Assembly: GCA_021156175.1 (NCBI GenBank)
Contig: JAJNBL010000002.1
Location: forward strand, 197,029-261,028
DNA from: Rickettsiales bacterium
Lineage (GTDB): Bacteria; Pseudomonadota; Alphaproteobacteria; Rickettsiales; JAJNBL01
Direction of reading: 5' to 3'
Length of the DNA stretch: 64,000 bases
Of the stretch, positions 1,566-58,990 are shown piece by piece; within the stretch, counting starts at the first letter, position 1, and each line of letters starts with the position of its first letter. Position numbers and translations under genes: made by a program. The notes under the pieces were generated by a model that had not been told where the DNA came from, ran no database searches, and saw nothing but the letters and a program-made list of their open reading frames with translations.

Positions 1566-1841
1566 ATGGAAGGGATGGAATTGCTGGAAATTGGCAATAA
1601 TGCGTTGTGGGTGTTGATTAAAATATCCCTCCCACTCATGTTGGTTGCGCTCGTCGTGGGTCTTGCGATTTCGCTTTTTCAAGCCTTGACCCAAATCCAG
1701 GAGATGACGCTTTCTTTCGTACCGAAACTGTTGGCGATTTTCTTTTCATTGATGATACTGCTTCCTTATATCGGAAATGAGTTGATGACTCTTTCCCAAG
1801 AACTTAGCAAAAAAATTGAGCATATTTCGGATGCTCCGTGA
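1566..1841 (+). CDS. fliQ: flagellar type III export protein FliQ
   Basis: 91 aa two-TM protein; 4-nt overlap with the next gene fliR; AAGGA 5 nt upstream of the ATG. Confidence 0.9.
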   Translation: MEGMELLEIGNNALWVLIKISLPLMLVALVVGLAISLFQALTQIQEMTLSFVPKLLAIFFSLMILLPYIGNELMTLSQELSKKIEHISDAP

Positions 1842-2629
1842 TGATCACATCGCTTGACGCTATCACCACCCCCGATATCTATACGTTCCTACTGGTATTC
1901 TGCCGGATAGGAACCGCAATCATGGTGATGCCGGGAATCGGTGAATCCTATATCCCCCCGCGGGTACGGTTGCTTGCAAGCCTTACTATCAGCTTGGTGT
2001 TATTGCCTACCTTAACTCCTGTATTGCCTTCAATGCCCTCGGATGTACCCAGTCTTTTCTTGGATGTGGGAGGAGAAATTACCATTGGCGCATTTATAGG
2101 GCTGCTCACCCGGATGTTCATCAGTGTCATGCATATGGCCGGGATGATCATTGCCTATCAGTCTGGCCTTGCCTCCGCCGTGATGTTTGATCCCACCTCC
2201 GAATCACAAGGAACCACGATTGGTAACTTCATGGCGCTGACCGCTGTTGCGTTATTGATGATTACCGATTTCCATCATCTGATGCTTTACGCATTACGCG
2301 ACAGCTATCATGTCTTTGCCCCTGGAGCGAAGCTGCCGGTTGGAGATATGGCAGAAACCGCCACCGCCACCTTAGCCGATGCCTTTTTGATCGCGTTACA
2401 ATTTTCCTCTCCTCATATCGTGATCGGGTTGCTATTATATTTAACGGCAGGGCTAATGTCGCGCGTGATGCCAAACATGCAGGTATTTTTCATTCTGATG
2501 CCGTTGCAGATCCTTTTGAGTATTTTTGTCATGGCTGTTACGCTATCCGGCGGGATGTTATGGTATATTGGTCATATGCAAGAGCAGATCGGGATATTTG
2601 CGGCACCTTCATCCATCTCTACACGGTAA
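1838..2629 (+). CDS. fliR: flagellar type III export protein FliR
   Basis: 263 aa polytopic membrane protein between fliQ and flhB. Confidence 0.88.
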   Translation: MMITSLDAITTPDIYTFLLVFCRIGTAIMVMPGIGESYIPPRVRLLASLTISLVLLPTLTPVLPSMPSDVPSLFLDVGGEITIGAFIGLLTRMFISVMHMAGMIIAYQSGLASAVMFDPTSESQGTTIGNFMALTAVALLMITDFHHLMLYALRDSYHVFAPGAKLPVGDMAETATATLADAFLIALQFSSPHIVIGLLLYLTAGLMSRVMPNMQVFFILMPLQILLSIFVMAVTLSGGMLWYIGHMQEQIGIFAAPSSISTR

Positions 2630-2631
2630 GT

Positions 2632-2758
2632 TATAGCATTTTCGCTTTAAGTGTAGACCAGGAGCGCAAGGTGAGGAGGCCGTAAGCGTAGTCAATCTAC
2701 GTGCAGATCGACAAATCCGATGCACGACGACGTATACACTTAATTGGAGAATGCTATA
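2632..2758. repeat. palindromic intergenic element, family B (copy B1)
   Basis: 127 bp. Terminal inverted repeats TATAGCATT (2632-2640) and AATGCTATA (2750-2758). The central ~60 nt (2664-2723) is nearly identical to the reverse complement of 46952-47079. Confidence 0.8.
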
Positions 2759-2759
2759 A

Positions 2760-3836
2760 ATGGCTGATGACGATCAGGATGAGTCCCAGAAGACGGAGGA
2801 ACCCACCCACCGTCGATTAGAAGAAGCCTTTAAGAAAGGACAAGTTCCCTTCTCCCGTGAAGTCACAAGCTTCATGATGTTGCTCGCTTTCACGATTGCG
2901 CTCCTGTGGATTGCACCGTATGCCATGCGGAACGCCACGCTCTATCTCTCAAGCTATATCGAACATTCTTACAGTATTCCGGTTGACCCGGATTCCATCC
3001 GTCCTTTAGCATTGTATATGCTGGTGGGTACCGGCTCCATTATTGCCATACCTATTTTGCTCACCCTTGTCGCTGCCTTTGCAGGAGCGCTCATGCAAAA
3101 CGGGATTGTCACCTCTTCCGAGCCCCTCATCCCCAAACTTGAAAAGATTTCGCCGCTCAAAGGCTTAAAGCGGATGTTTTCATTAAAATCCTTTATCGAA
3201 CTCCTTAAAGGGGTGGTGAAGGTCACGCTTATTGGGGTGATTGCCTATATCGCCATCTTTCCCCATTTAGGTACGCTTGAAATCCTCCATACTTACAGCA
3301 TGGCCGGGCTGCTTGCCTTTATCTGGGAGCTGGCCAAACGTATTATGATCGGTGTCGCGTGCCTCATGCTCTTTGTTGCGCTTGCGGATTTCATTTACCA
3401 ACGTTTTGAGCATCGGAAATCCTTGCGCATGTCAAAGCACGATCTAAAAGAAGAATTTAAGCAGTCCGAAGGTAACCCGGAAGTCAAAGCCAAGCTTAGA
3501 CGGCTTCGTGCAGAACGTGCACAAAAACGTATGATGGCCGCGGTTCCTACCGCCGATGTGATTATCACCAACCCAACCCACTTTGCGCTCGCACTGAAAT
3601 ATGACGTAAAAGTGATGAAAGCCCCGATGTGCGTGGCCAAAGGCCAGGACCATGTGGCCCTTAAAATCCGGGAAGTCGCAAAAGAGCACAAGATTCCGAT
3701 TGTCGAAAACCCGCCACTTGCCCGGGCACTGTTTGAAAGCGTGGAAATTGACCAAGAAATCCCGGTGAAGCATTACCAGGCTGTCGCGGAAATCATCGGA
3801 TACGTTTACAAGCTCAAAGGAAAGATACCGCGGTGA
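2760..3836 (+). CDS. flhB: flagellar type III export switch protein FlhB
   Basis: 358 aa; acidic N-terminus, 4 TM segments, autocleavage motif NPTH (ITNPTHFALALKY). Confidence 0.92.
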   Translation: MADDDQDESQKTEEPTHRRLEEAFKKGQVPFSREVTSFMMLLAFTIALLWIAPYAMRNATLYLSSYIEHSYSIPVDPDSIRPLALYMLVGTGSIIAIPILLTLVAAFAGALMQNGIVTSSEPLIPKLEKISPLKGLKRMFSLKSFIELLKGVVKVTLIGVIAYIAIFPHLGTLEILHTYSMAGLLAFIWELAKRIMIGVACLMLFVALADFIYQRFEHRKSLRMSKHDLKEEFKQSEGNPEVKAKLRRLRAERAQKRMMAAVPTADVIITNPTHFALALKYDVKVMKAPMCVAKGQDHVALKIREVAKEHKIPIVENPPLARALFESVEIDQEIPVKHYQAVAEIIGYVYKLKGKIPR

Positions 3837-16961: not shown

Positions 16962-17016
16962 GGGAGACCTCTTGTCTTACGAATGGAACTGAGGTTTAAA
17001 TTTCCTAACACCTGAC

Positions 17017-17095
17017 GAAAAAAGGAGATTTCAAGACCTGTAGCGGAGCGTACCTTAAGGTACGTAAGCAACAGCAGCTTAAAAATCTCCTTTTT
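17017..17095. repeat. family A short form (copy A3)
   Basis: Core GAGCGTACCTTAAGGTACGTAAGC (17047-17069), flanked by GAAAAAAGGAGATTT ... AAATCTCCTTTTT arms. Confidence 0.7.
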
Positions 17096-17115
17096 GCAGT
17101 CCGTGACAGTAGAAT

Positions 17116-18600: not shown

Positions 18601-18616
18601 TGTTTCACGTGAAACA
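18601..18616. other. parS centromere-like site
   Basis: TGTTTCACGTGAAACA, a perfect 16-bp palindrome matching the parS consensus; extended palindrome 18599-18618. Confidence 0.85.
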
Positions 18617-28104: not shown

Positions 28105-29139
28105 TTATTCTCCTTTTGCACATACACATTTTCCAAATTCAGCCGGGCAATTGTTGCCTCCTGAAGCTCTGGATATCGGTTTTTCTGAGTCTTTTAATCC
28201 CAAACATAGCGACGCCAATGACGCTATAAAATGCTCATTCACCCCAAGCGCTGGAACCCGCGCATAATAGGGTATTCCCACTTCTTCGGCTTTTTTCCGG
28301 TATTCAATATCCAGCTCCACGAGCGTCTCAGAATGTTCCGACACAAACGCCACCGGCACCACCACCACCGGAACATTATCCTTCCCCGCCCGCGCTATCT
28401 CATCCCCAAGTGATGGGCCTATCCAAGCCAGCGGCCCTACCCGGCTTTGATAACAAATCGCATAATCAAGTTTCTCGATATTTAAGCGTTTCACGATAGC
28501 TGCAACGGTTTGTTCCACCTGCCATTGATATGGATCTCCGGCTTTGACGATTTTTTCTGGCAAACCATGGGCAGAAAATAAAATGCGTGGATTTCCCTCT
28601 TTTTTTGTTTCCTCATAGACCGGCCGAAGTAATGTTTCATACGCTTCTATAAACGCAGGTTCTTGTGGATAACACCCTATCGCCTGGGTAGGAACATCCA
28701 GTCTTTGTGCTTTTGCTTGCTCGTTCCAATCGTCCAAAGAGGATCCGGTCGTAGTAGTCGAAAATTGGGGATAGAGTGGAAGGAGTATCACCCGATCCGG
28801 CTGGTAGGTCTTCACCTGCTTCACCACTTCTTTGCTCATCGGATGCCAATACCGCATCGAGACAAACACACGATAACCTGTTCCCAATTTTGCTTCTAAG
28901 CTTTGCGCTTGCGCTTGGGTGAGTGGCAAGATCGGCGATCTTCCTCCCATTTCCTGATAAATTGCTTGGGCTTTTTGATTCCGTCCGCGGGAAATTATTT
29001 TTGCCAGCAAAAACCGAAAAGGTTGAGGAAGTGCAATGATCGCTTTGTCGCTAAAAAGATTGAAGAGAAACGGCTTCACTGATTCCAGACAATCAGGCCC
29101 ACCTAAATTAAATAAAACTACCGCAACACGTGCATTCAT
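28105..29139 (-). CDS. hemH: ferrochelatase
   Basis: 344 aa; VVLFNLGGPD N-terminus; SAHGLP motif. Confidence 0.93.
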   Translation of the reverse strand: MNARVAVVLFNLGGPDCLESVKPFLFNLFSDKAIIALPQPFRFLLAKIISRGRNQKAQAIYQEMGGRSPILPLTQAQAQSLEAKLGTGYRVFVSMRYWHPMSKEVVKQVKTYQPDRVILLPLYPQFSTTTTGSSLDDWNEQAKAQRLDVPTQAIGCYPQEPAFIEAYETLLRPVYEETKKEGNPRILFSAHGLPEKIVKAGDPYQWQVEQTVAAIVKRLNIEKLDYAICYQSRVGPLAWIGPSLGDEIARAGKDNVPVVVVPVAFVSEHSETLVELDIEYRKKAEEVGIPYYARVPALGVNEHFIASLASLCLGLKDSEKPISRASGGNNCPAEFGKCVCAKGE

Positions 29140-30191
29140 GCCGCTTGTTTCCTTTTCCAGCTTCGCACGGTTTCGACCAACAGCTCAACATTTTCGATCG
29201 GCGTCGTCGGTAGAATCCCATGCCCTAAATTCACGATAAATGGCCCGTGTTTTAATGCTTCTAGCAATGAAATAATCTGATCCCGAAGCATCCCCTTTTC
29301 CGCAAATAACATCACCGGATCCAAATTCCCTTGCACCGGTTTCTTTGTTTGGAGCTGCTTTGCTGCCCATATCAGAGGAATGGTGGTGTCGAGACCTACT
29401 GCATCCACGCCTGTTTGCTTGAGATACGCTTCGTAATAAAACCCAGCGCCGCGTGGGAATCCGATGATAGGAATCGCAGGATGCCGTAATTTAAGCTTTT
29501 CTACAATTTTGCGCGTCGGTTCAATTACCCATTGCGAAAACGCTTCTTCGGGTAATACACCCGCCCAGGAATCAAACAATTGCACCGTTTCCGCACCGGC
29601 TTGAATCTGAAGCGATAAATGTTCGACCGTCGCTTCTATCAAAATATCGATCAATTTTCCAAATGCAGACGGTGTGGCATAAGCCCAACGTTTGCTTTCC
29701 AAAAATTCTTTGCTGCTGCCGCCCTCGAGCATATAGGTTGCTACCGTCCAAGGGCTTCCTGCGAAACCAATGAGGGTGGTGTGTGTGGGTAATTGTTGTT
29801 TGATTTCTGCGACTGCTTCATAAACGGGGGAAAGATGGGAAGCGATACGTTCAGGCTTTAATCCTGCTAATGCTTTTTCCGATGTGATTTTTTCGAGTAT
29901 CGGCCCTTTTTTCTCTTCAAAGGTCACATGCATGCCGAGTGCATCGGGAATCACCAAAATATCGGAAAATAAAATCGCTGCATCAAAACCAAAGCGACGA
30001 ATAGGCTGCAACGTCACTTCAGCCGCGAGTTTCGGTGTATAGCACATCTGTAAGAAACTGGAGACATCTTTTCTGATTTCACGATATTCCGGTAAATATC
30101 GTCCGGCTTGACGCATCAACCATAACGGAGGAGTATCAAGTTGTTTCCCCTTCAATGTCTCTAATAATGGCTTTCCAGTCTGCTTTACCAT
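29136..30191 (-). CDS. hemE: uroporphyrinogen decarboxylase
   Basis: 351 aa; PPLWLMRQAGRYLPEYR signature. Confidence 0.95.
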   Translation of the reverse strand: MVKQTGKPLLETLKGKQLDTPPLWLMRQAGRYLPEYREIRKDVSSFLQMCYTPKLAAEVTLQPIRRFGFDAAILFSDILVIPDALGMHVTFEEKKGPILEKITSEKALAGLKPERIASHLSPVYEAVAEIKQQLPTHTTLIGFAGSPWTVATYMLEGGSSKEFLESKRWAYATPSAFGKLIDILIEATVEHLSLQIQAGAETVQLFDSWAGVLPEEAFSQWVIEPTRKIVEKLKLRHPAIPIIGFPRGAGFYYEAYLKQTGVDAVGLDTTIPLIWAAKQLQTKKPVQGNLDPVMLFAEKGMLRDQIISLLEALKHGPFIVNLGHGILPTTPIENVELLVETVRSWKRKQAA

Positions 30192-30650
30192 GATGACACT
30201 CTACAATTTCCCACGTCTTTTTGAAAAGCCCTTATACATTTTTTTTCACGAGAAGTATCCTACTATCTAATAAGTATTTATTAGAGAAATAAAGTAGAGG
30301 TAATAGTTGTCCTTCCGGATATGGGGATACAATAGTTTACACGGAGTTTTCCACATAGTGATGGGAGTTGAAAATAGTTGGGGATAATTATGGGGATATA
30401 GAGTATAAGCTATTGTTATTGTATTAAAAATAATAGGGTTTATATATATAGTTATAAAGGACATTACTACTTACTCCCATTATCCCGATCCCTACTTAGC
30501 AACTTATCCTCAGGGGATAAATCATGAATCACTTGTGGTATTTTTGTTGAGAAAACCCCTTTAGCTGCGTAAGATCACTTTCGCACAGAGTTATGCAAGC
30601 GGTTATCCTCACGCTTATCCACAATTTTAGAAATAAATGATTTAACACCT
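30192..30650. other. candidate chromosomal replication origin (oriC)
   Basis: 459-bp non-coding gap between hemE and the RP001/PDRP homologue. Perfect DnaA box TTATCCACA at 30615-30623; at least 7 one- or two-mismatch boxes; AT-rich core about 30400-30470. Confidence 0.65.
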
Positions 30651-38742: not shown

Positions 38743-38783
38743 CGCTCTTTACTTTCTGTTAAAACGCAATTATGGCGAGGGAT

Positions 38784-38863
38784 TTTTTTGAAATCAGGTT
38801 CTTAAAAAGCGGAGCGTACTTAAAGGTACGTGAGCATTATTTAGGGTTCTGATTTCGAAAAAA
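38784..38863. repeat. family A short form (copy A4)
   Basis: Core GAGCGTACTTAAAGGTACGTGAGC (38813-38835), flanked by TTTTTTGAAATCAGG... / ...CTGATTTCGAAAAAA arms. Confidence 0.7.
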
Positions 38864-38882
38864 GCACCGGCAGAATTGTGTT

Positions 38883-45813: not shown

Positions 45814-45935
45814 CTTTTCGCTAGGCTGAGCCGGAAAATAGTAATTTTCCTAAAGCCGGAGCAGAGCGTACTTAAGGGTACGTGAGCACAGGAAGTTAGG
45901 AAAATTACTAGTTAACGGCCAGCATAGTAGAAAAG
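45814..45935. repeat. family A long form (copy A2)
   Basis: Same ends and core as 1437-1558. Arm TAGTAATTTTCC (45839-45850) pairs perfectly with GGAAAATTACTA (45899-45910). Confidence 0.75.
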
Positions 45936-45940
45936 AAACC

Positions 45941-46954
45941 ATGCGTATCCTAGCCATTGAGAGTAGCTGTGATGAAACCGCGGTCGCGATTGTAAGCGAT
46001 ACCCGCGAAATCCTTGCGCATACGGTCGTTTCCCAATTAGAAGAACATCGCCCCTATGGTGGTGTGGTGCCGGAGATTGCAGCCCGGTCGCATATTATGC
46101 ATCTGGATCAGCTGGTTGCAAAGACATTGAAAGATGCTGGTTTAAGTTATTCCGATCTCGATGCGGTGGCGGCAACGGCGGGCCCAGGATTGATTGGTGG
46201 CGTGATGGTAGGCGTGATGACCGCCAAAGCCATTGCGAGTGCGGCTTCCCTTCCCTTCATCGCTGTGAATCACTTAGAAGGCCATGCGCTGACCATTCGC
46301 CTCACCGATAACCTTCCCTTTCCTTATCTTCTCCTCCTTGTTTCCGGCGGGCATTGCCAATTATTGGCGGTGGAAGATGTTGGAAAATATCAGCGCTTAG
46401 GTTCTACGATCGATGATGCGCTTGGGGAAGCTTATGACAAGGTCGCGAAGATGCTGGGTTTGGGTTATCCGGGAGGTCCCAAGGTTGAGCAATATGCGCT
46501 TAAAGGCAATGCGAAGCGTTTTGCACTCCCTCGGCCATTGCTTGGGCGCCCAGACTGCAATTTTTCTTTTTCCGGCTTAAAAACGGCTGTTAAACGCGAA
46601 GTAGATGCATTGGGCGAAGGACTTTCCAGGCGAGATGCAGAAGATATCTGTGCCTCCTTCCAAGCGGCGATTGGTGATGTGCTTAACGATCGCGTTGCTC
46701 GGGCGTTAGTGCAGTTCTCAGCACTCTATCCCGATGCAAGACGCTTTGTCCTTGCGGGTGGCGTTGCGGCAAATCAGTATATCCGTGGAAGGTTAGAGTC
46801 GTTATTACGCGATCACGGATTTACACTTCATGCCCCTCCTCCGGCATTATGTACGGATAATGCCGCAATGATCGGTTGGGTCGGAGTAGAACTCTTCACC
46901 CGCGGCATTACCCATGACCTCGATATCGGCGCGCGCGCCATGTGGCCACTGTAG
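45941..46954 (+). CDS. tsaD: tRNA N6-adenosine threonylcarbamoyltransferase TsaD
   Basis: 337 aa; [15 protein letters not shown]-terminus; NHLEGH metal motif. Confidence 0.94.
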
Positions 46955-47079
46955 AGCATTTTCCATTTCCGTATATAGGTTGTCGGGCATCGGATTTGTC
47001 GGTCTGCACGTAGATTGACTACGCTTACGGCCTCCTCAGCTTGCGCTTCTAGTCTATACGGAAAGCGAAAGCGCTCTTA
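46952..47079. repeat. family B element, inverted copy (B2)
   Basis: Its reverse complement aligns over about 128 bp with 2632-2758. Its first 3 nt are the tsaD TAG stop codon. Confidence 0.8.
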
Positions 47080-47177: not shown

Positions 47178-47876
47178 ATGTTATCTAGCCGCCGCCTAAA
47201 ACAAGGGTTTACCTTAGTAGAGATGAGTATCGTGCTCACGATTATTGGCCTGTTGATCGGTGCTGTAATCGGAGGATTAAAAGTGAAGCGCAGCCTCGAA
47301 GTAAACCAGGCGATGGAAGGGATCACAACGTTACGGGAAGCGATAGCGACCTTTAAAAAACGCTATAACGGCCTTCCGGGGGATTTATGGAATGCGCAAA
47401 CGTTATTTGGTACGACGAATACGAGCAATGGCAATGGGGATGGTCTTTTGACCGATACTTCCGCAGATAATTTGCGTTTCTTCCAACATCTATCATTAGC
47501 GGGCGTGATTGCTGGAGCCTATGATGGCGCAACGATTAAGCCAGGTGTAGGGCTTATGGCGGGAAGTATTCGGGGATCCGCCTATAGTATTGTTTCTCTG
47601 AATTCCTCTTCCCATTATCTCTTTTTTTCAAAATTTAGAGATACCGATGGAGACGGGGCCATTGAATGGATTTTTAGTGAGGATGCACTTGCGGTTTTGA
47701 CCCCTCAAGAGATGTGGAAAATTGATACAGAAAATGACGATGGCAATCCCGCTGCAGGCCGGATCCAAAGCTTTGATGGTTCGGATGTTACGGCAGGAAG
47801 CTGCGTTACCGGTGGAGCTTATAACCTTTCGTACAAATCAGACGCCTGCGTAGTGCAAGTACAGCTAAATGAATAG
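47178..47876 (+). CDS. prepilin-type N-terminal cleavage/methylation domain protein (type IV pilin / pseudopilin-like)
   Basis: 232 aa; class III signal KQG|FTLVEMSIVLTIIGLLIGAV; C-terminal Cys pair. Confidence 0.78.
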   Translation: MLSSRRLKQGFTLVEMSIVLTIIGLLIGAVIGGLKVKRSLEVNQAMEGITTLREAIATFKKRYNGLPGDLWNAQTLFGTTNTSNGNGDGLLTDTSADNLRFFQHLSLAGVIAGAYDGATIKPGVGLMAGSIRGSAYSIVSLNSSSHYLFFSKFRDTDGDGAIEWIFSEDALAVLTPQEMWKIDTENDDGNPAAGRIQSFDGSDVTAGSCVTGGAYNLSYKSDACVVQVQLNE

Positions 47877-47897: not shown

Positions 47898-47913
47898 TGT
47901 TTCACGTGAAACA
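47898..47913. other. parS centromere-like site
   Basis: TGTTTCACGTGAAACA; extended 22-bp palindrome 47895-47916. Confidence 0.85.
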
Positions 47914-47955: not shown

Positions 47956-50900
47956 CTATTCCGCATTTCGTTGGGAAACCGCACAAATTGCTTCCACCCG
48001 TTTCGCTGCCACGACTAACATCGCGCTGTCAATATGCTCAGATGATTTAAGATCATTCACAAATTGATCGTAACGCGAAATCTCTTTGTTATTCGCCTCA
48101 CACCAATTCGCAACCGCTGTTAAGCAAAATACATCATTGCAATTATGTTTGATGACTTCTGCGGTCAGGCGCATTTGCTGATCGTACATATCTTCCGTCA
48201 ACATGCGCAAGGACAGACGATCCCAGTAGCCTTCTGCGGGTTGTTCGGCAATGTAAGAACGCAAGAGCCCAAGGCTTAAACGGCCACCGAGTTCGAAATA
48301 GATCTTCCCTACGGCATCGACGGGTAACGCACCATTTTGCGCCACTTTCACGATGTCGCACGCAGAGGCAAGTACGCCCAATCCTGCGATTTGACGCGCC
48401 AGTGTCTCCGGCACGCCCGCTTCGTGATAACGCGTAAAGCGTGCACGGTAATGTTTCATCGCGATGGGCGACAACAAGGTCTCTAGTGCGCTTGACAGCG
48501 TTTTCACGCCGGCAGCATAAACGTCCACGAGCTTCGCCACTTGCAGAGGCTGGCTATGGTTACGCAAGAACCACATGGCGTTACGTTCGATAAGTTTCTG
48601 GATTTCCAGGAAAAGCTCCACACCAATCGCGACCGGAACGGTTTCATCCAATGCTTCAATATCATCCCATAACGTCCTTAAACCAAAGGCATCGCGGGTG
48701 ATCGCATAGGCACGGGCAACATCACATCCTTTCATGCCGGTATCTTCCATCAAACTATGGAAGAAGGTAATGCCTGCACGGTTGACGATGCTGTTGGTCA
48801 CATGGGATGCGATAATTTCACGACGCAGCGGATGGGAAGTCAGTGCTTCCGGGAAACGTTCGCGCATTTGGGTTGGGAAATAAATCAGCAAATCTTCCAT
48901 GAAATAAGATTCATCGCCAAGATTCGATGGCAATAGATCCGTATAGATGGATTGTTTCGAGTACGAAAGAAGGATCGCAAGTTCAGGGCGGGTAAGGCCA
49001 CTTTTCTCCGCTTTTCTCCGTGCGATGACATGGCTATCAGGCAAGAACTCGATTTTGCGGTTTAAAAGCTTCTTAGACTCCAGGCGGGTCATGAGGCGCT
49101 CTTGTTGCTCAAGCTGACTATGGCCTTGAAGCTCTGCAACAGTCAAGGCCTGGGCCTGAAGCTCGTTATCACGGAGTACGAGGCGTGCCACTTCATCCGT
49201 CATTTCTTCAAGCAAGGTATTGCGTGCCGCTTGGGTAAGCTTTTTGGATTGTACCAATCCACCCAAAGCGATTTTGATATTCACCTCATGGTCAGAGCAA
49301 TCCACACCTGCGGAGTTATCAATAAAGTCGGTATTAATCCGGCCACCTTTTAAAGCGTATTCGATACGGCCTTTTTGGGTAACGCCCAGATTTCCGCCTT
49401 CGCCCACGGCTTTACAGCGAAGCTCGTGGCCGTTGATACGTAAATTATCGTTGGCTTTATCGCCTACATCCGCATGGCCTTCATCCGCCGATTTGATATA
49501 GGTCCCAATACCGCCGTTCCACAAGAGATCCACCGGCGCTTTCAAAATCGCACGGATGAGTTCATCAGGAGTAAGGGCATCTTCTTCGATATCCAGGCGC
49601 GCTTTGACTTCCGCAGTCAAAGGAATCGATTTTGCCGAACGTTCAAATATTCCGCCGCCTTGTGAGATCAAGGATGCATTATAATCCTTCCAGGTCGAGC
49701 GTGGGAGATTGAAGAGGCGTTTGCGCTCATCAAAACTCTTTGCTGCATCTGGGTTTGGATCAAGGAAGATATGTATATGGTTAAATGCCGCAACGAGGCG
49801 GATATGACGGGAAAGCAACATCCCGTTGCCAAATACGTCGCCCGCCATGTCACCAATCCCGGTGACAGTGAAATCGGTGGTTTGGGTGTTGATACCCATT
49901 TCTTTGAAGTGACGCTGAACAGAAACCCATCCACCGCGCGCAGTAATCGCCATTTTCTTATGGTCATATCCTGCAGAACCACCTGAGGCAAACGCATCGC
50001 CAAGCCAGAATCCGTAAGCTGCGGAAACGCTATTCGCGATATCGGAGAAGGATGCCGTCCCTTTATCCGCCGCGACTACCAAATATGGATCATCTGCATC
50101 ATGACGTACGACTTGTTTTGGTGGGACAACCGCACCGTTTATAATGTTATCCGTGATGTCAAGCAAACCGCTCAAGAACGTTTTGTAGCAGGCAATCCCT
50201 TCTTGTAGATAGGCTTCACGTCCGCCTTCCTGAGGGGGTTGTTTCACAACGAAGCCACCTTTAGAGCCAACAGGTACGATCACCGCGTTTTTGGTCATCT
50301 GTGCCTTCATGAGGCCCAATACTTCGGTGCGGAAATCTTCCGCACGGTCAGACCACCGCAAACCACCGCGGGCGACTTTACCGCCGCGCAAGTGAATTCC
50401 TTCCACACGCGAAGAATAGACGAAAATCTCAGCGTACGGCCGTGGCAATGGCAGGCCTGGCACAAGAGCAGAATCGAATTTGAAGGAGATATAGGCTTTG
50501 TGTACGTTCTCGTTGTCGCCCGATTGGAAATAATTGGTACGCAATGTCGCCAGGATTAAGTCCATATAACGGCGGATAATGCGGTCATCCGTCACATCGG
50601 AAACAGACGCAAGTGCGGCTTCAATTTCCTGCTGCAAGGTTTCCATCACGCTCACGCGGTCTTGCTTATTTGATGGGTCAAATCGTGCATCGAACAAGGC
50701 AACCAGTTTACGTGTAATGCCAGGATGGCGGCTCAGGGTTTGTTCAACAGAGGTTTGGCTATAGGTGAAACCAATCTGGCGCAAATATTTCGCATAAGCG
50801 CGCACTAATACGACTTGGCTCCATGCAAGGCCGGCACAGAGAATAAGTTGGTTAAACCCATCATTTTGCACTTCGCGTTCCCAGACTTTTGACAGCAAGG

Positions 50901-52869
50901 ATTCAAAGTTATCTTTAATATCTTGAATTTTCGGGCGAATTTGACCATCTGGAGGTGTCAATCGGAAATGGTGAACCCATACGGCCTGTTTGCCCTTTGG
51001 TGCCACTTTATAGGTATGCTCATCGATAATCGGGAAGCCCATATTTTCGAGGATTGGCATGATGTCCGAAAGGCGAAGCTGTTTTTCGCACGAGTAGATT
51101 TTCAGCTGCAACCAATCTTTATCATTGTCGTTAGTCTCATAGAGATCAAACAGAATGCCGCCTTGGGCATACATGCGTTCCATGCTTTTGATATCCCAAT
51201 AGGCATGGTAGGCAGTAAAGCGCTCGCAATAAGCTGCAGAGAAGGCTTCCGCATAGGTTTCAAATAATTTCTCGCGTTGGCCCTCATCGGCTTTTTGCGC
51301 GATCTCATCTTTTAAAGTATCTCCCCAAATCCGTGCGACTTCCGCGAGTTTGGCTTCTACATCGGTGATATCGTAGGCGGGAATCGCGCCCGGTTCGGTT
51401 TTCACAATCAGGTTAAGGCGAGCGAAAGGCGAATCGGTAACTTGGGTATAATAGTTGACCACATCGCCGTTAAACGCTTGCTCAAGCACGATCTGAATTT
51501 TCTTCCGAAGACCGGTGCTGAAGCGTTCCCGTGGGATAAACAGGATGCAGCTGATAAAGCGCTCAAATTTATCTTTGCGCGCGAATAACCGCACCCGGCG
51601 TTGAACCGCAAGCGACACAATTCCCATACAGGTTTCAAACAATTCGTCTTCCGAAATTTGGAAGAGCTCATCGCGCGGGAAGGATTCCAGCGCAGATGCA
51701 AGTTCCTTGCCGCTATAGCCGCCTTTCGGGAAGCCAGCACGGTTGAGTACGGAAGCCATTTTCTGGCGGATCATTGGAATATGGTCCGCACTTTGGTAAT
51801 ACACGATCGAGGTGAATAATCCGCGGAAACGGTGCTCCCCAATCACATTCCCTGACGCATCAAAGCGTTTGATGCTGATATCGTCCATATGAATAGGGCG
51901 ATGGATCACGGAACGGTTAGATTTGGTAATCTCAACGAAGTTCGGATTGCGTAAGAAATGCTGCACCTCTTTTGGGACGAGCTGGACGCTTTTTTGGCTT
52001 TCGTCCTTTAATATCCCAAGCTCATGGCTGCTTTTGATATCAAGCCCTTTGCCGGTCTCGACAAAATCATATTGGGCATAGCCCAAGAAAATAAAGTTCT
52101 TATCGCAAAGCCAGCGGATGAAATCTTGGGTCTCCGCGAGGTAATTTTCAGCAGAAACAGGACTTTCCGGGGTATAATGTTTTTTCAAAGCAGGAAGGGC
52201 GGATTCGGTTTCTTTTAACATCGATTCTGCTTGCGCAAGCATCGCCTTCCAGTCTTCCACGGCTTGGCGGATGGTGCTTAAGGTGTGACGAATATCCGCC
52301 GATACTTCTTCCAAGAAGACCGGATCATGAATGGCGGCCACACGGAAATGGATCACCGATTCTGCCGAGCCTTTAGGACTCGCGCCTGTGCCATTGGTGG
52401 ATTCAGCCGCGGGGTATATGGTTTCTAGTGCGCCCTTCGCATTCCGAGAAACGCGCAAGACTGGATGCAAAATACACTGAATTTGCAGGCGGTGGCGAGT
52501 TAAAGCCTCCGTGCAGGAATCCACTAAGAACGGCATATCATCATTGATGACTTCAATCACCGTATAAGGCCCGGTCCATCCATGTTCTTTGACAGAAGGA
52601 TTATAAACCCGGAGAGAGGGGGTATTGGGGGTGCGGGATTTTAAGAAATTAAAGCTAGAGCGGGCAATGGCGGCGAGTTCAGAAGGGCTAAATACGGCGA
52701 TATCGTCTTTCGGAGTTCGCAAATAGAGTTGTCGCGCAAACTCTGCCGCGTCGCCTTTTTCTTTAAAAACTGTCAGGATTTCCCCGATCAGTGGGCTGTT
52801 TGCAGTTAAATAACTCGTTGTGGAAGGAGACGTAATGGTCTCGTCAGTTGCGCGTTTTTCCTTAGCCAT
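47956..52869 (-). CDS. gdh: NAD-specific glutamate dehydrogenase, large (~180 kDa) class
   Basis: 1637 aa, a size characteristic of the giant NAD-GDH family. Central ELFV-dehydrogenase-like region (VPVGSKGGFV..., GDMAGDVFGNGML). Confidence 0.9.
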   Translation of the reverse strand: MAKEKRATDETITSPSTTSYLTANSPLIGEILTVFKEKGDAAEFARQLYLRTPKDDIAVFSPSELAAIARSSFNFLKSRTPNTPSLRVYNPSVKEHGWTGPYTVIEVINDDMPFLVDSCTEALTRHRLQIQCILHPVLRVSRNAKGALETIYPAAESTNGTGASPKGSAESVIHFRVAAIHDPVFLEEVSADIRHTLSTIRQAVEDWKAMLAQAESMLKETESALPALKKHYTPESPVSAENYLAETQDFIRWLCDKNFIFLGYAQYDFVETGKGLDIKSSHELGILKDESQKSVQLVPKEVQHFLRNPNFVEITKSNRSVIHRPIHMDDISIKRFDASGNVIGEHRFRGLFTSIVYYQSADHIPMIRQKMASVLNRAGFPKGGYSGKELASALESFPRDELFQISEDELFETCMGIVSLAVQRRVRLFARKDKFERFISCILFIPRERFSTGLRKKIQIVLEQAFNGDVVNYYTQVTDSPFARLNLIVKTEPGAIPAYDITDVEAKLAEVARIWGDTLKDEIAQKADEGQREKLFETYAEAFSAAYCERFTAYHAYWDIKSMERMYAQGGILFDLYETNDNDKDWLQLKIYSCEKQLRLSDIMPILENMGFPIIDEHTYKVAPKGKQAVWVHHFRLTPPDGQIRPKIQDIKDNFESLLSKVWEREVQNDGFNQLILCAGLAWSQVVLVRAYAKYLRQIGFTYSQTSVEQTLSRHPGITRKLVALFDARFDPSNKQDRVSVMETLQQEIEAALASVSDVTDDRIIRRYMDLILATLRTNYFQSGDNENVHKAYISFKFDSALVPGLPLPRPYAEIFVYSSRVEGIHLRGGKVARGGLRWSDRAEDFRTEVLGLMKAQMTKNAVIVPVGSKGGFVVKQPPQEGGREAYLQEGIACYKTFLSGLLDITDNIINGAVVPPKQVVRHDADDPYLVVAADKGTASFSDIANSVSAAYGFWLGDAFASGGSAGYDHKKMAITARGGWVSVQRHFKEMGINTQTTDFTVTGIGDMAGDVFGNGMLLSRHIRLVAAFNHIHIFLDPNPDAAKSFDERKRLFNLPRSTWKDYNASLISQGGGIFERSAKSIPLTAEVKARLDIEEDALTPDELIRAILKAPVDLLWNGGIGTYIKSADEGHADVGDKANDNLRINGHELRCKAVGEGGNLGVTQKGRIEYALKGGRINTDFIDNSAGVDCSDHEVNIKIALGGLVQSKKLTQAARNTLLEEMTDEVARLVLRDNELQAQALTVAELQGHSQLEQQERLMTRLESKKLLNRKIEFLPDSHVIARRKAEKSGLTRPELAILLSYSKQSIYTDLLPSNLGDESYFMEDLLIYFPTQMRERFPEALTSHPLRREIIASHVTNSIVNRAGITFFHSLMEDTGMKGCDVARAYAITRDAFGLRTLWDDIEALDETVPVAIGVELFLEIQKLIERNAMWFLRNHSQPLQVAKLVDVYAAGVKTLSSALETLLSPIAMKHYRARFTRYHEAGVPETLARQIAGLGVLASACDIVKVAQNGALPVDAVGKIYFELGGRLSLGLLRSYIAEQPAEGYWDRLSLRMLTEDMYDQQMRLTAEVIKHNCNDVFCLTAVANWCEANNKEISRYDQFVNDLKSSEHIDSAMLVVAAKRVEAICAVSQRNAE

Positions 52870-54531: not shown

Positions 54532-54547
54532 TGTTTCACGTGAAACA
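54532..54547. other. parS centromere-like site
   Basis: TGTTTCACGTGAAACA; extended 24-bp palindrome 54528-54551. Confidence 0.85.
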
Positions 54548-56510: not shown

Positions 56511-57171
56511 GATACCTCCTACGGTAAAAGCACAAATTGATAAATATATTAGTGAAAATGTTTCACGTGAAACATTTGAGCGTCTCGATCAGTATGTCGT
56601 TGATCTTTTGCAATGGAACCAATCGATCAATCTTATCGGCAAGAATACGGAAGTTATGATATGGGATCGGCATATTTTAGATTCCGCCCAACTGCTTTCG
56701 CATATTCCTGAGCACACAAGAATCATTACAGATATCGGAAGCGGTGCGGGATTGCCCGGAATGGTGCTGGCGATTCTTGGGAATTTTTTGGAAGTACATT
56801 TAGTAGAAAGTGATCGAAGGAAAGCTCTGTTTTTGGAGGCGGTTGCTCCGCTTGGAGGAGATACGCGAGTGATCGTGCATAAGAGCCGGGCTGAAATTTT
56901 GGGTGCATCCGCGACATGGGAAAGCGATGTTATCACCGCGCGGGCCTGTGCGCCGCTTACCACATTGTTAGAACTTATCTCTCCTTTTATAGAAGGTAAG
57001 CAAAAAAAATGCTTATCACTCCTCCTAAAAGGGAGTAGTGTGGAGAAAGAGTTAGAGGAAGCAGCGCGTAAATGGAATATTCTTTCGTATGATGCCCATC
57101 CCAGCATTACACATGACGAGGGGCGAATTTTGGCGATTCAGGAATTTCATCTGCGTTCTAAAACCTCTTAA
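56497..57171 (+). CDS. rsmG: 16S rRNA (guanine527-N7)-methyltransferase RsmG (GidB)
   Basis: SAM motif [10 protein letters not shown]. Start ambiguous (ATG at 56476, 56485 or 56497). Contains a parS site read as NVSRETF. Confidence 0.88.
56559..56574. other. parS centromere-like site inside the rsmG coding sequence
   Basis: TGTTTCACGTGAAACA, identical to the four intergenic copies. Confidence 0.85.
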
Positions 57172-57203: not shown

Positions 57204-58037
57204 ATGGGTAACGAAAAACCAAGTTGTAAAGTCATCGCGATTGTAAACCAAAAAGGCGGCGTGGGGAAAACCACGACGGCAGTGAATTTGGCAACCGCGC
57301 TCGCGGCGGTGCGCAAACGGACATTATTACTCGATCTTGATCCTCAAGGGAATGCAAGTACCGGGGTGGGAATTCCACCGGATAATCGTAAGGTAACGAT
57401 ATACCAGGTGATTTCAGGATTAGAAGCGCCGGAATCAGCAATTCTCAAAACGGCGGTGCCGTATTTAGATGTGATTCCTGCCGATATGGATTTGGCAGCG
57501 TCGGAAATGGAGCTGGCGCCGATTGCGCGTCGAGAATTTGTCGTCCGTCAGATTATCGACATACTTGCTCCCAAATACGACTATATATTAATTGACTGTC
57601 CGCCCTCATTGAGTTTATTGACGGTCAATGCATTGGTCGCGTCCAATACCGTATTGATCCCGGTGCAGTGCGAATATTTTGCACTCGAAGGCTTAAGTCA
57701 TTTGTTAAAGACGATTAAGCTTGTGAAGAAACGTTTGAACCCGGCGCTTCGGATCGAAGGCCTGGTGTTGACCATGTATGATAAGCGCAACCGCCTGACG
57801 GAACAAGTGGAAGGCGAGGTGCGGGAGTATTTTACGGATCTGGTTTATAAGACGGTGATTCCACGTAATGTTCGATTGTCGGAAGCGCCCTCGCATGGGA
57901 AGCCGGCAATTATTTATGATTTACAATGTCCGGGCTCGAAGGCCTATCTGCATTTGGCGCGCGAATTATTGAAGCGTCAGACAGAGATGAAAAAATTACG
58001 GCAAGACGAAACCATGGAAGAGGAGAAAGTTGCATGA
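57204..58037 (+). CDS. parA: chromosome partitioning ATPase ParA
   Basis: 277 aa; deviant Walker A NQKGGVGKTTT. Confidence 0.95.
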   Translation: MGNEKPSCKVIAIVNQKGGVGKTTTAVNLATALAAVRKRTLLLDLDPQGNASTGVGIPPDNRKVTIYQVISGLEAPESAILKTAVPYLDVIPADMDLAASEMELAPIARREFVVRQIIDILAPKYDYILIDCPPSLSLLTVNALVASNTVLIPVQCEYFALEGLSHLLKTIKLVKKRLNPALRIEGLVLTMYDKRNRLTEQVEGEVREYFTDLVYKTVIPRNVRLSEAPSHGKPAIIYDLQCPGSKAYLHLARELLKRQTEMKKLRQDETMEEEKVA

Positions 58038-58972
58038 TCCCAGGGAAGAATCAAGGTTTAGGCAAGGGGTTGGCTGCGCTCATTGGCGATATTGAAGAAG
58101 AAACAATTGCCATAGAAAAAAGCGGGCGCGTACCGCCGACCGTTGAACGGAGAAAAGGGGAGTGGCAAGTCGAATTCCTTTCCGTGGATTTGCTTGAGGC
58201 GGGGCCGTATCAGCCACGCGCCTATTTTGACGAAGAGGCACTTCGCGAACTTGCGGATTCTATTAAAGAGCGCGGAGTGTTGCAGCCGGTGGTCGTTCGT
58301 CCGATGGGAGGAAATGGAAAACATCCGATTATTGCGGGAGAGCGCCGGTGGCGTGCTTGTCGGTTAGCGGGACTTTCCGTGATTCCAGCGATCGTTCGGG
58401 ATCTTACCGAAAAAGAAGCGCTGCAAGTTGCACTGATTGAAAACATCCAACGTAAAGATCTTACGATTGTAGAAGAAGCAGAAGGGTATAGCCGACTGAT
58501 TGAGGAATTCTATTATACCCAAGAACAGCTTGCCGACCAGTTAGGGAAAAGCCGTAGCCATATCAGCAATTTGCTGCGTTTGTTGCAATTGCCGGACGAA
58601 GTGAAAAATATGCTCAATGATGGGGTGCTCTCAATGGGGCATGCGCGGGCGTTACTCAATGCACATAATCCTTCCGAGGTGGCGCGTTCGATTGTTGCGC
58701 GAGGATTAAATGTTCGGCAAACGGAAGCTTTGATGCGCGGCGAGGCGTTGGACAAGGAACATGAGCGTCAGGATCGGAACCGCCAACCCTTCGGTGGAAA
58801 AGTACAAAAACCCAAAGACGAAGATTTGGTACAGCTTGAGCAAATGCTTTCCGAGCGGATGGGATTGCCGGTCACTATTTATGAACAAGAAAAAGGTGGT
58901 CAAGTGCAAATCCAATTTAGTAATCTTGAAGAGCTCGATAAAATTCTTCAACGCCTTACCGCCACTGTCTAA
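58034..58972 (+). CDS. parB: chromosome partitioning protein ParB
   Basis: The track ORF starts at 57926. I prefer the ATG at 58034 (ATGA overlap with the parA stop; N-terminus MIPGKNQGLGKGLAALI). ParB box GERRWRA; HTH segment. Confidence 0.93.
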   Translation: MIPGKNQGLGKGLAALIGDIEEETIAIEKSGRVPPTVERRKGEWQVEFLSVDLLEAGPYQPRAYFDEEALRELADSIKERGVLQPVVVRPMGGNGKHPIIAGERRWRACRLAGLSVIPAIVRDLTEKEALQVALIENIQRKDLTIVEEAEGYSRLIEEFYYTQEQLADQLGKSRSHISNLLRLLQLPDEVKNMLNDGVLSMGHARALLNAHNPSEVARSIVARGLNVRQTEALMRGEALDKEHERQDRNRQPFGGKVQKPKDEDLVQLEQMLSERMGLPVTIYEQEKGGQVQIQFSNLEELDKILQRLTATV

Positions 58973-58974
58973 AA

Positions 58975-58990
58975 TGTTTCACGTGAAACA
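58975..58990. other. parS centromere-like site
   Basis: TGTTTCACGTGAAACA, starting 3 nt after the parB stop. Confidence 0.88.

Follow-up and report, generated by a model that had tools for sequence, protein, structure and literature searches.

The spacer between fliR and flhB is filled by a 127-nt repeat that folds as a long hairpin (B1, positions 2632 to 2758, plus strand), and an inverted copy of it (B2, 46952 to 47079, minus strand) sits at the end of tsaD in the same 64-kb window, i.e., the whole stretch of 64,000 nt analyzed here. In our judgment, the two copies rather probably represent a palindromic repeat that is lineage-restricted, non-coding, and non-autonomous and belongs to the broad class of the MITE, ERIC, Correia, RPE, and REPIN elements. 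Their constant parts are the single-stranded fold, the central hairpin AG-YGTAN-loop-N'TACRT-G, and the flanking blocks AGGAGYGC and CGACRACG, whereas the termini vary. The general kind of repeat is already known; new here are this unusual pattern of conservation and a family wider than first seen.

B1 and B2 are found at unrelated loci and are reverse complements, as the first-pass annotation had claimed, with 85% identity over 124 to 131 nt. The nearly identical centre of ca. 60 nt that it described was also recovered, with 58 of 60 positions the same (2664 to 2723 in B1, plus strand), two differences, and one run of 36 nt that is fully identical. A 29-mer taken from this core occurred exactly twice in the window and never in 100 shuffled versions. 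Both copies (127 to 128 nt, with stop codons in most reading frames) fold on the B1-sense strand as a single long interrupted hairpin, with a free energy of -42.1 kcal/mol for B1 (z=-4.6) and -38.8 kcal/mol for B2 (z=-3.0). The middle of the centre is occupied by the central hairpin, AGCGTAG-TCAAT-CTACGTG in B1 (2685 to 2703, plus strand; 47007 to 47025, minus strand, in B2), a motif that extends to the whole superfamily described below.

The arms forming the outer stem (2632 to 2658 on the left and 2732 to 2758 on the right in B1, both plus strand) follow another pattern. Their sub-terminal parts read AAGTGTA/TACACTT in B1 and CCGTATA/TATACGG in B2, and the terminal pairing differs too (TATAGC/GCTATA against TAGAGC/GCTCTA). 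The stem changes between the copies comprise four double compensations and two single changes that preserve a wobble. All 19 outer-stem pairs were kept even with 10 of 38 columns changed, a result that none of 20,000 trials equalled when as many stem columns were substituted at random, and that bears out the earlier claim of compensatory arms in a dispersed repeat. Differences between B1 and B2 were concentrated in the arms (15/56 columns, compared to 5/70 in the centre; Fisher p=0.003). The compensatory changes are of the Watson-Crick type and thus compatible with either strand, and with DNA as well as RNA.

A third copy of B, whole or partial, was not detected by sensitive BLAST, nhmmer, or a covariance model in the window plus 16.6 kb of adjoining contig sequence (10 kb on the left side, 6.6 kb on the right), so that the census is based on two copies in about 80 kb, and the arm sequences of B1 and B2 had no further occurrence in the window. 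The small number of countable copies is what could be said for a chance similarity or a segmental duplication with no repeat family behind it. This reading, to which we give practically no credence, is refuted by the similarity between B1 and B2 stopping exactly at the hairpin ends, with unrelated flanking sequence, by the zero matches expected from shuffles, by the stem pairing kept between the copies, and by the homologues carried by other organisms. The repeat also leaves its trace in public assemblies of this organism, where the identical 36-nt core breaks de Bruijn unitigs. Thus, Logan unitigs of SRR35179664 (the 3' end of L093, the 5' end of L002, and the 3' end of L099) terminate within it, with breaks on both sides of B1 and after tsaD, as expected for a repeat longer than the assembler k-mer.

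In agreement with the first-pass annotation, B1 starts 2 nt after the stop codon of fliR (1838 to 2629, plus strand; stop at 2627 to 2629) and ends 1 nt before the ATG of flhB (2760 to 3836, plus strand; ATG at 2760, with an N terminus that agrees with the FlhB consensus), taking up 127 of the 130 nt of the gap. The fliR and flhB genes share 11 nt in L086, the closest relative, and are separated by 14 nt in another relative (L089). Across 66 loci of reference genomes, the median spacer was 12 nt (≤50 nt in 55 loci and ≥100 nt in 6), estimated with approximate start codons. Judged by these junctions, B1 stands out clearly as an insertion into a very short gene-to-gene boundary. The comparison of fliR-flhB spacers suggested by the first-pass annotation hence revealed empty sites, the opposite of a leader carried by relatives at the orthologous position. 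A repeat has been wedged into an operon junction that relatives keep at 0 to 14 nt, and flhB stays expressible because B1 donates a ribosome-binding site, which would make it a tangible example of selfish DNA recruited by an essential flagellar export operon.

That site is the Shine-Dalgarno (SD)-like GGAG at 2746 to 2749 (plus strand), located in the right arm of B1, 10 nt upstream of the ATG. If the element were absent, the fliR stop and the flhB ATG would be about 5 nt apart, with no SD sequence between them. The claim that the right arm holds the only GGAG before flhB, with GGAA in its place in B2, was confirmed: it is the sole anti-SD-complementary site within 25 nt upstream of the ATG, and the G of B1 still pairs, as U.G. 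From these positions, the right arm supplies the only SD sequence of flhB, which the gene would have acquired from the element. The predicted mRNA fold pairs G2747 to G2749 with the left arm, right behind the fliR stop. When this arm was masked, simulating a terminating ribosome, the mean unpaired probability of the SD sequence rose from 0.39 to 0.57. A ribosome terminating on fliR would open the stem, and translation of flhB would be coupled to that of fliR. The predicted gain in accessibility is compatible with such coupling and gives it modest support, its small size being a point against the model.

At the second locus, the TAG stop codon of tsaD (45941 to 46954, plus strand; stop at 46952 to 46954) makes up the first three plus-strand bases of B2, exactly as annotated, and a prepilin-type (pseudopilin-like) gene follows downstream (47178 to 47876, plus strand). 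TsaD ends here in ...RAMWPL, its last conserved residues, exactly at the conserved WPL, while in E. coli and most relatives it runs 2 to 15 residues beyond. One homologue likewise ends at WPL, and truncation by B2 was rejected as a line of evidence for this reason. To go by the sequence, B2 may possibly have truncated TsaD or supplied its stop. As for an empty site downstream of tsaD, the gene is not syntenic in the closest relative (there it comes 5 nt after era, and the 74 nt downstream of it contain no element), and so this relative offers no orthologous site for B2. The proposal that the elements have become part of start and stop signals hence stands for the SD sequence in the right arm of B1, the supply of a stop to tsaD being compatible with the data.

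B had been described as a family of its own. It is indeed a two-copy repeat, although the first-pass annotation missed that it is a branch of a larger set that includes family A. Four members of A are present in the window, all listed on the plus strand: A1 (1437 to 1560) in the fliE-fliQ spacer, A2 (45814 to 45935) in the eda-tsaD spacer, A3 (16977 to 17112) between two minus-strand genes, and A4 (38763 to 38882) between a thiE-like and a gloB-like gene, both on the minus strand. In addition, C1 (11727 to 11871, plus strand) is a singleton hairpin of 145 nt (z=-7.3) with B-like blocks, located between an FMN reductase gene and cobS and ending 2 nt ahead of the cobS start. A1 to A4 and C1 are long hairpins of 120 to 145 nt with z values from -4.5 to -7.5, and all the copies are intergenic. 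Family A has a conserved centre, AGCGGAGCGTAC..GTACGTGAGCA, and its arms are 83% identical between A1 and A2 and unalignable in A3 and A4. The combination of a conserved centre and variable arms seen in B is repeated in families A and C.

The seven elements of the window (four A, two B, and one C) have in common the central hairpin AG-YGTAN-(3-6 nt loop)-N'TACRT-G, which in C1 reads AGTGTAC-ATAAAA-GTACATG, and the same hairpin appeared in three elements of related uncultured organisms (L086, L098, and L014). When nine centres were aligned, all six pairs of the hairpin were formed in 100% of the cells. Pair 19-34 covaried (CG in seven, UA in two), as did pair 23-30 (CG in five, GC in two, and UA in two), and a flanking pair switched between GC (five) and CG (four). 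The covariation score was 0.427, compared to 0.175 for shuffled alignments (0/500), and controls slid along the sequence collapsed. Over their whole length, A and B showed no significant local alignment (z≤1.1), and the putative kinship between them is drawn solely from the central hairpin and a short TTCGC block. This block, TTCGC(T/A), is found in the left arm of 8 of the 10 elements (at 2643 to 2648 in B1, and in B2, A1, A2, C1, L086, L098, and L014, where it reads CTCGCT), at a variable distance from the centre and opposite an internal loop in B and A.

A centre conserved between arms that are variable yet always paired would also be expected of multicopy small-RNA genes, in which the centre (about 35 to 60 nt) would be the product and the complementary arms a processing stem, as around rRNAs. 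The closing G.U of the central hairpin fits this reading, since it was invariant in the nine aligned centres and is found in the tenth member, L098, as well. So does the strand asymmetry of family A, in which A1, A2, A4, and the element at L086:607-748 have 16 G.U pairs on the forward strand and none on the reverse, and the forward fold is more stable by up to 23 kcal/mol. Even A4, which is antisense to its neighboring genes, folds at -48.1 kcal/mol forward and -24.6 kcal/mol in reverse. However, the B-type copies have no such G.U asymmetry, and neither promoter-like nor terminator-like sites, including intrinsic terminators (a G+C-rich stem with a T run), were found in, overlapping, or adjoining B1 or B2. 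B1 lies 2 nt and 1 nt from its flanking genes, which leaves no space for signals of its own. No Rfam family matched either: the scan at gathering thresholds returned tRNA only, the E-value scan of the whole window added one unrelated sub-threshold match, and that of B1 gave two negligible sub-threshold matches in the flanks and none inside the element. Altogether, we regard small-RNA genes as improbable.

The host lineage is isolated, with the closest FlhB at 64% identity and the closest TsaD at 76%, and the top FlhB match among 185,579 species-representative genomes had an identity of 51%. Homologues of the elements were found in related uncultured organisms. The closest relative, the source of this 64% identical FlhB, carries a clear family A member (L086:607-748) just upstream of fliQ, as is A1. 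A B-like element in a "Candidatus Jidaibacter" MAG (L014:125-265) was flagged independently by nhmmer, a B-only model, and the motif scan. The third (L098:505-631), from a relative whose TsaD is 68% identical, was a non-training match of the centre model (34.5 bits, E value of 8e-11) and adopts a long-hairpin fold (z=-5.7). B1, B2, L014, and L098 have in common the blocks AGGAGYGC to the left and CGACRACG to the right of the centre, the left one being off by one position in B2 and L014 (AGAAGCGC and AGGAGCCC). All four start 0 to 10 nt past a stop codon, with two copies oriented like the gene that ends there and two oriented against it, in line with the association to gene boundaries noted initially. 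A scan for the motif plus arms over 1.13 Mb of loci detected hairpins of this type in the window and its nearest relatives and hardly anywhere else, and no superfamily members appeared in about 1 Mb of loci from other bacteria. In total, A-like and B-like elements occur in organisms with a TsaD or FlhB only 46 to 76% identical. The unfiltered full-length B model (R1) gives a score to any long hairpin and is not discriminating. This unspecific model also aligned a 55-nt hairpin at L014:4282-4336 to the arms of B, with the 77-nt centre absent (22.9 bits), which could be a pair of arms lacking the core or just an AT-rich hairpin.

The persistence of the elements at such low identities, together with the presence of an A-type element before fliQ in two organisms that share only 64% identity in FlhB, could mean a host function. 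The elements might, then, be cis-acting RNA structures selected by the host to set the expression of neighbors within polycistronic mRNAs, either by RNase III/E processing or by protection of the 3' end of the upstream cistron. Further routes would be stalling of termination by a stem within about 15 nt of the stop, and SD sequestration or translational coupling of the downstream gene. An effect of REP sequences on termination was reportedly described by Liang, Rudd and Deutscher in 2015. The covariation that preserves the stems speaks for this reading, as do the start of the four B-like copies so close to a stop codon, the SD sequence of flhB held within the stem of B1, and the nearly one-stranded G.U pairs of family A. 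REP, ERIC, and Correia elements are known to have comparable effects on expression (PMC3184786, PMC10969869). Likewise, all seven window elements fill spacers between co-directional genes, although this is not significant against a background of 20/27. On the other hand, 4 of the 10 elements are antisense to their flanking genes (6 are sense), so that the conserved asymmetric centre would not be in the mRNA in the same sense, which speaks against a strand-dependent role within mRNAs. The flanking genes have no functional relation to one another, and the fliR-flhB junction of relatives works without any spacer. For these reasons, we deem host-selected RNA structures rather unlikely.

Searches in larger collections gave no match. 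The exact 24-mer of the B core was absent from the 185,579 species-representative genomes, and a 20-mer had three matches in JGI metagenome contigs, all of them due to chance within coding DNA; the source metagenome is evidently outside this collection. Neither the plasmids of PLSDB nor viral contigs matched B. A six-frame chimeric peptide query of both B copies against 5.8 billion protein clusters, used to detect copies overlapped by gene calls, returned nothing at E≤10. Integron attC sites, retrons, hammerhead ribozymes, and K-turns were rejected on inspection, since their defining sequences or partner genes are absent.

Among the known repeats, RPEs are palindromic dispersed repeats of 105 to 150 bp that form several families (PMC3184786, PMC10969869). 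B resembles them in its Rickettsiales-type host, in being a palindromic dispersed repeat of similar size, and in having several families. RPEs are typically in-frame insertions within ORFs that encode a conserved peptide, whereas every copy of B is intergenic and has no protein match, a distinction of position and coding. ERIC elements are imperfect palindromes of about 127 bp with TA at both ends that form a long RNA hairpin; they are intergenic, often at the 3' ends of genes and in either orientation, and are co-transcribed and able to alter the fate of the mRNA (PMC3184786, PMC10969869). B is like them in size, long hairpin, intergenic location at gene 3' ends, either orientation, and TA ends. 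However, B1 had no blastn match (word 11) in 5,426 complete E. coli genomes, so that B is not ERIC by sequence; moreover, its host differs at the phylum level, and in B conservation is confined to the centre, with compensated variation at the termini.

The Correia/NEMIS elements of Neisseria (104 to 157 bp) form a long mRNA hairpin next to genes, are RNase III substrates, and donate expression signals (PMC10969869). They share with B the size range, the long hairpin, and insertion beside genes, but of their conserved 26-bp terminal inverted repeats, TA duplication, and IHF site, none is conserved between the copies of B. REP/REPIN elements, mobilized by RAYT, and B are both built on a hairpin unit with a short conserved sequence and no classical terminal inverted repeat or clear target-site duplication, are located in operon spacers and at 3' ends, and have pairs that evolve in concert keeping the longer hairpin. 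REPINs, however, have conserved REP arms and a variable tip, and B a conserved tip and variable arms; no RAYT or Y1 transposase gene for a REPIN-type mobilization was found within the window. Finally, B is small (<~400 bp), non-coding, and multicopy, like a MITE, but each copy has its own terminal inverted repeat, different from that of the other, and it is the centre that is conserved. For elements of such size, fold, and TA flanks, co-transcription and cleavage by RNase III or RNase E are known, and some of them contribute a ribosome-binding site or promoter (PMC3184786, PMC10969869).

Returning to the mobile repeat that we favor, a conserved centre with variable termini suggests that what is recognized is a single strand in its folded form, bearing a specific hairpin at the apex. 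That strand, DNA or RNA, would probably be recognized and propagated by a factor encoded elsewhere in the genome. The arms would be free to drift as long as pairing holds, the pairing being kept by selection or by templated correction within the hairpin, a process proposed in bioRxiv 10.1101/2021.04.15.439925. Once inserted, the element would be co-transcribed with its neighbors in whichever orientation and form an interrupted RNA stem of ~40 bp right after the stop codon. By analogy with REP, ERIC, and Correia elements, such stems may affect termination, processing, or stability.

Several observations weigh against a mobile repeat. Only two copies of B were seen in about 80 kb, no presence/absence polymorphism was found between strains, and the pattern of conservation is the reverse of that of a classical MITE. 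The window carries housekeeping genes throughout, and neither its 64 kb nor the flanks contain a transposase, integrase, or Y1/HUH gene. Nor is there an unambiguous target-site duplication: TA is found at both ends of B1, and with a 1-nt offset in B2, but a flanking TA is self-complementary and could simply extend the terminal palindrome, from which a duplication is indistinguishable.

More tentatively, as a possibility to which we attach a lower probability, A, B, C, and the homologues in three uncultured Rickettsiales-like lineages could together be an undescribed class of structured single-strand elements with an apical hairpin recognized by a partner. The identity of this putative class would lie in the strand-asymmetric apical hairpin, with its invariant G.U, and in a few blocks within internal loops, the long stem that carries them being free in sequence. 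Its candidate partners would be a DNA enzyme specific for hairpins (HUH/Y1-like) or a protein that binds or processes RNA. If this were true, we would be dealing with a new mobilization system or a genome-wide post-transcriptional signal and not with decaying MITEs. The invariant centre and co-evolving arms, maintained across families and distant uncultured lineages, provide a motif with which to look for that enzyme or protein.

The region of the chromosome was also considered. The cumulative GC skew reaches its minimum at ~28 to 32 kb of the window (~30 kb, beside hemE), and gene orientation diverges at the same place. An AT-rich spacer of 459 nt (~30192 to 30650, 34% G+C) adjoins hemE (29136 to 30191, minus strand). 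In alphaproteobacteria, the usual place of the replication origin is beside hemE, and from the skew minimum, the diverging genes, and the long AT-rich spacer, the window probably spans the oriC region. The sequence TGTTTCACGTGAAACA, which we take to be the canonical parS consensus, has five perfect copies (18601 to 18616, 47898 to 47913, 54532 to 54547, 56559 to 56574, and 58975 to 58990), each embedded in AAATGTTTCACGTGAAACATTT just past a gene end, and parA/parB are located at ~57204 to 58972 (Pfam ParA/ParB).

This setting, with parAB and five perfect parS sites, together with the presence of seven elements in 64 kb compared to none in 16.6 kb of flanking sequence, would suit a DNA-level site, acting as a cruciform or bound by a protein, tied to the origin-proximal region of the chromosome. 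Such a site is, however, very improbable: loop length and half-site spacing vary, the arms have no conserved sequence, the homologues in L086, L098, and L014 are found in unrelated contexts, and the orientation of the elements does not follow the replichore (5/7). Besides, an ORF of 1,637 residues (47956 to 52869, minus strand), unrelated to the hairpin elements, has the Pfam domains of a large NAD-specific glutamate dehydrogenase (Bac_GDH).
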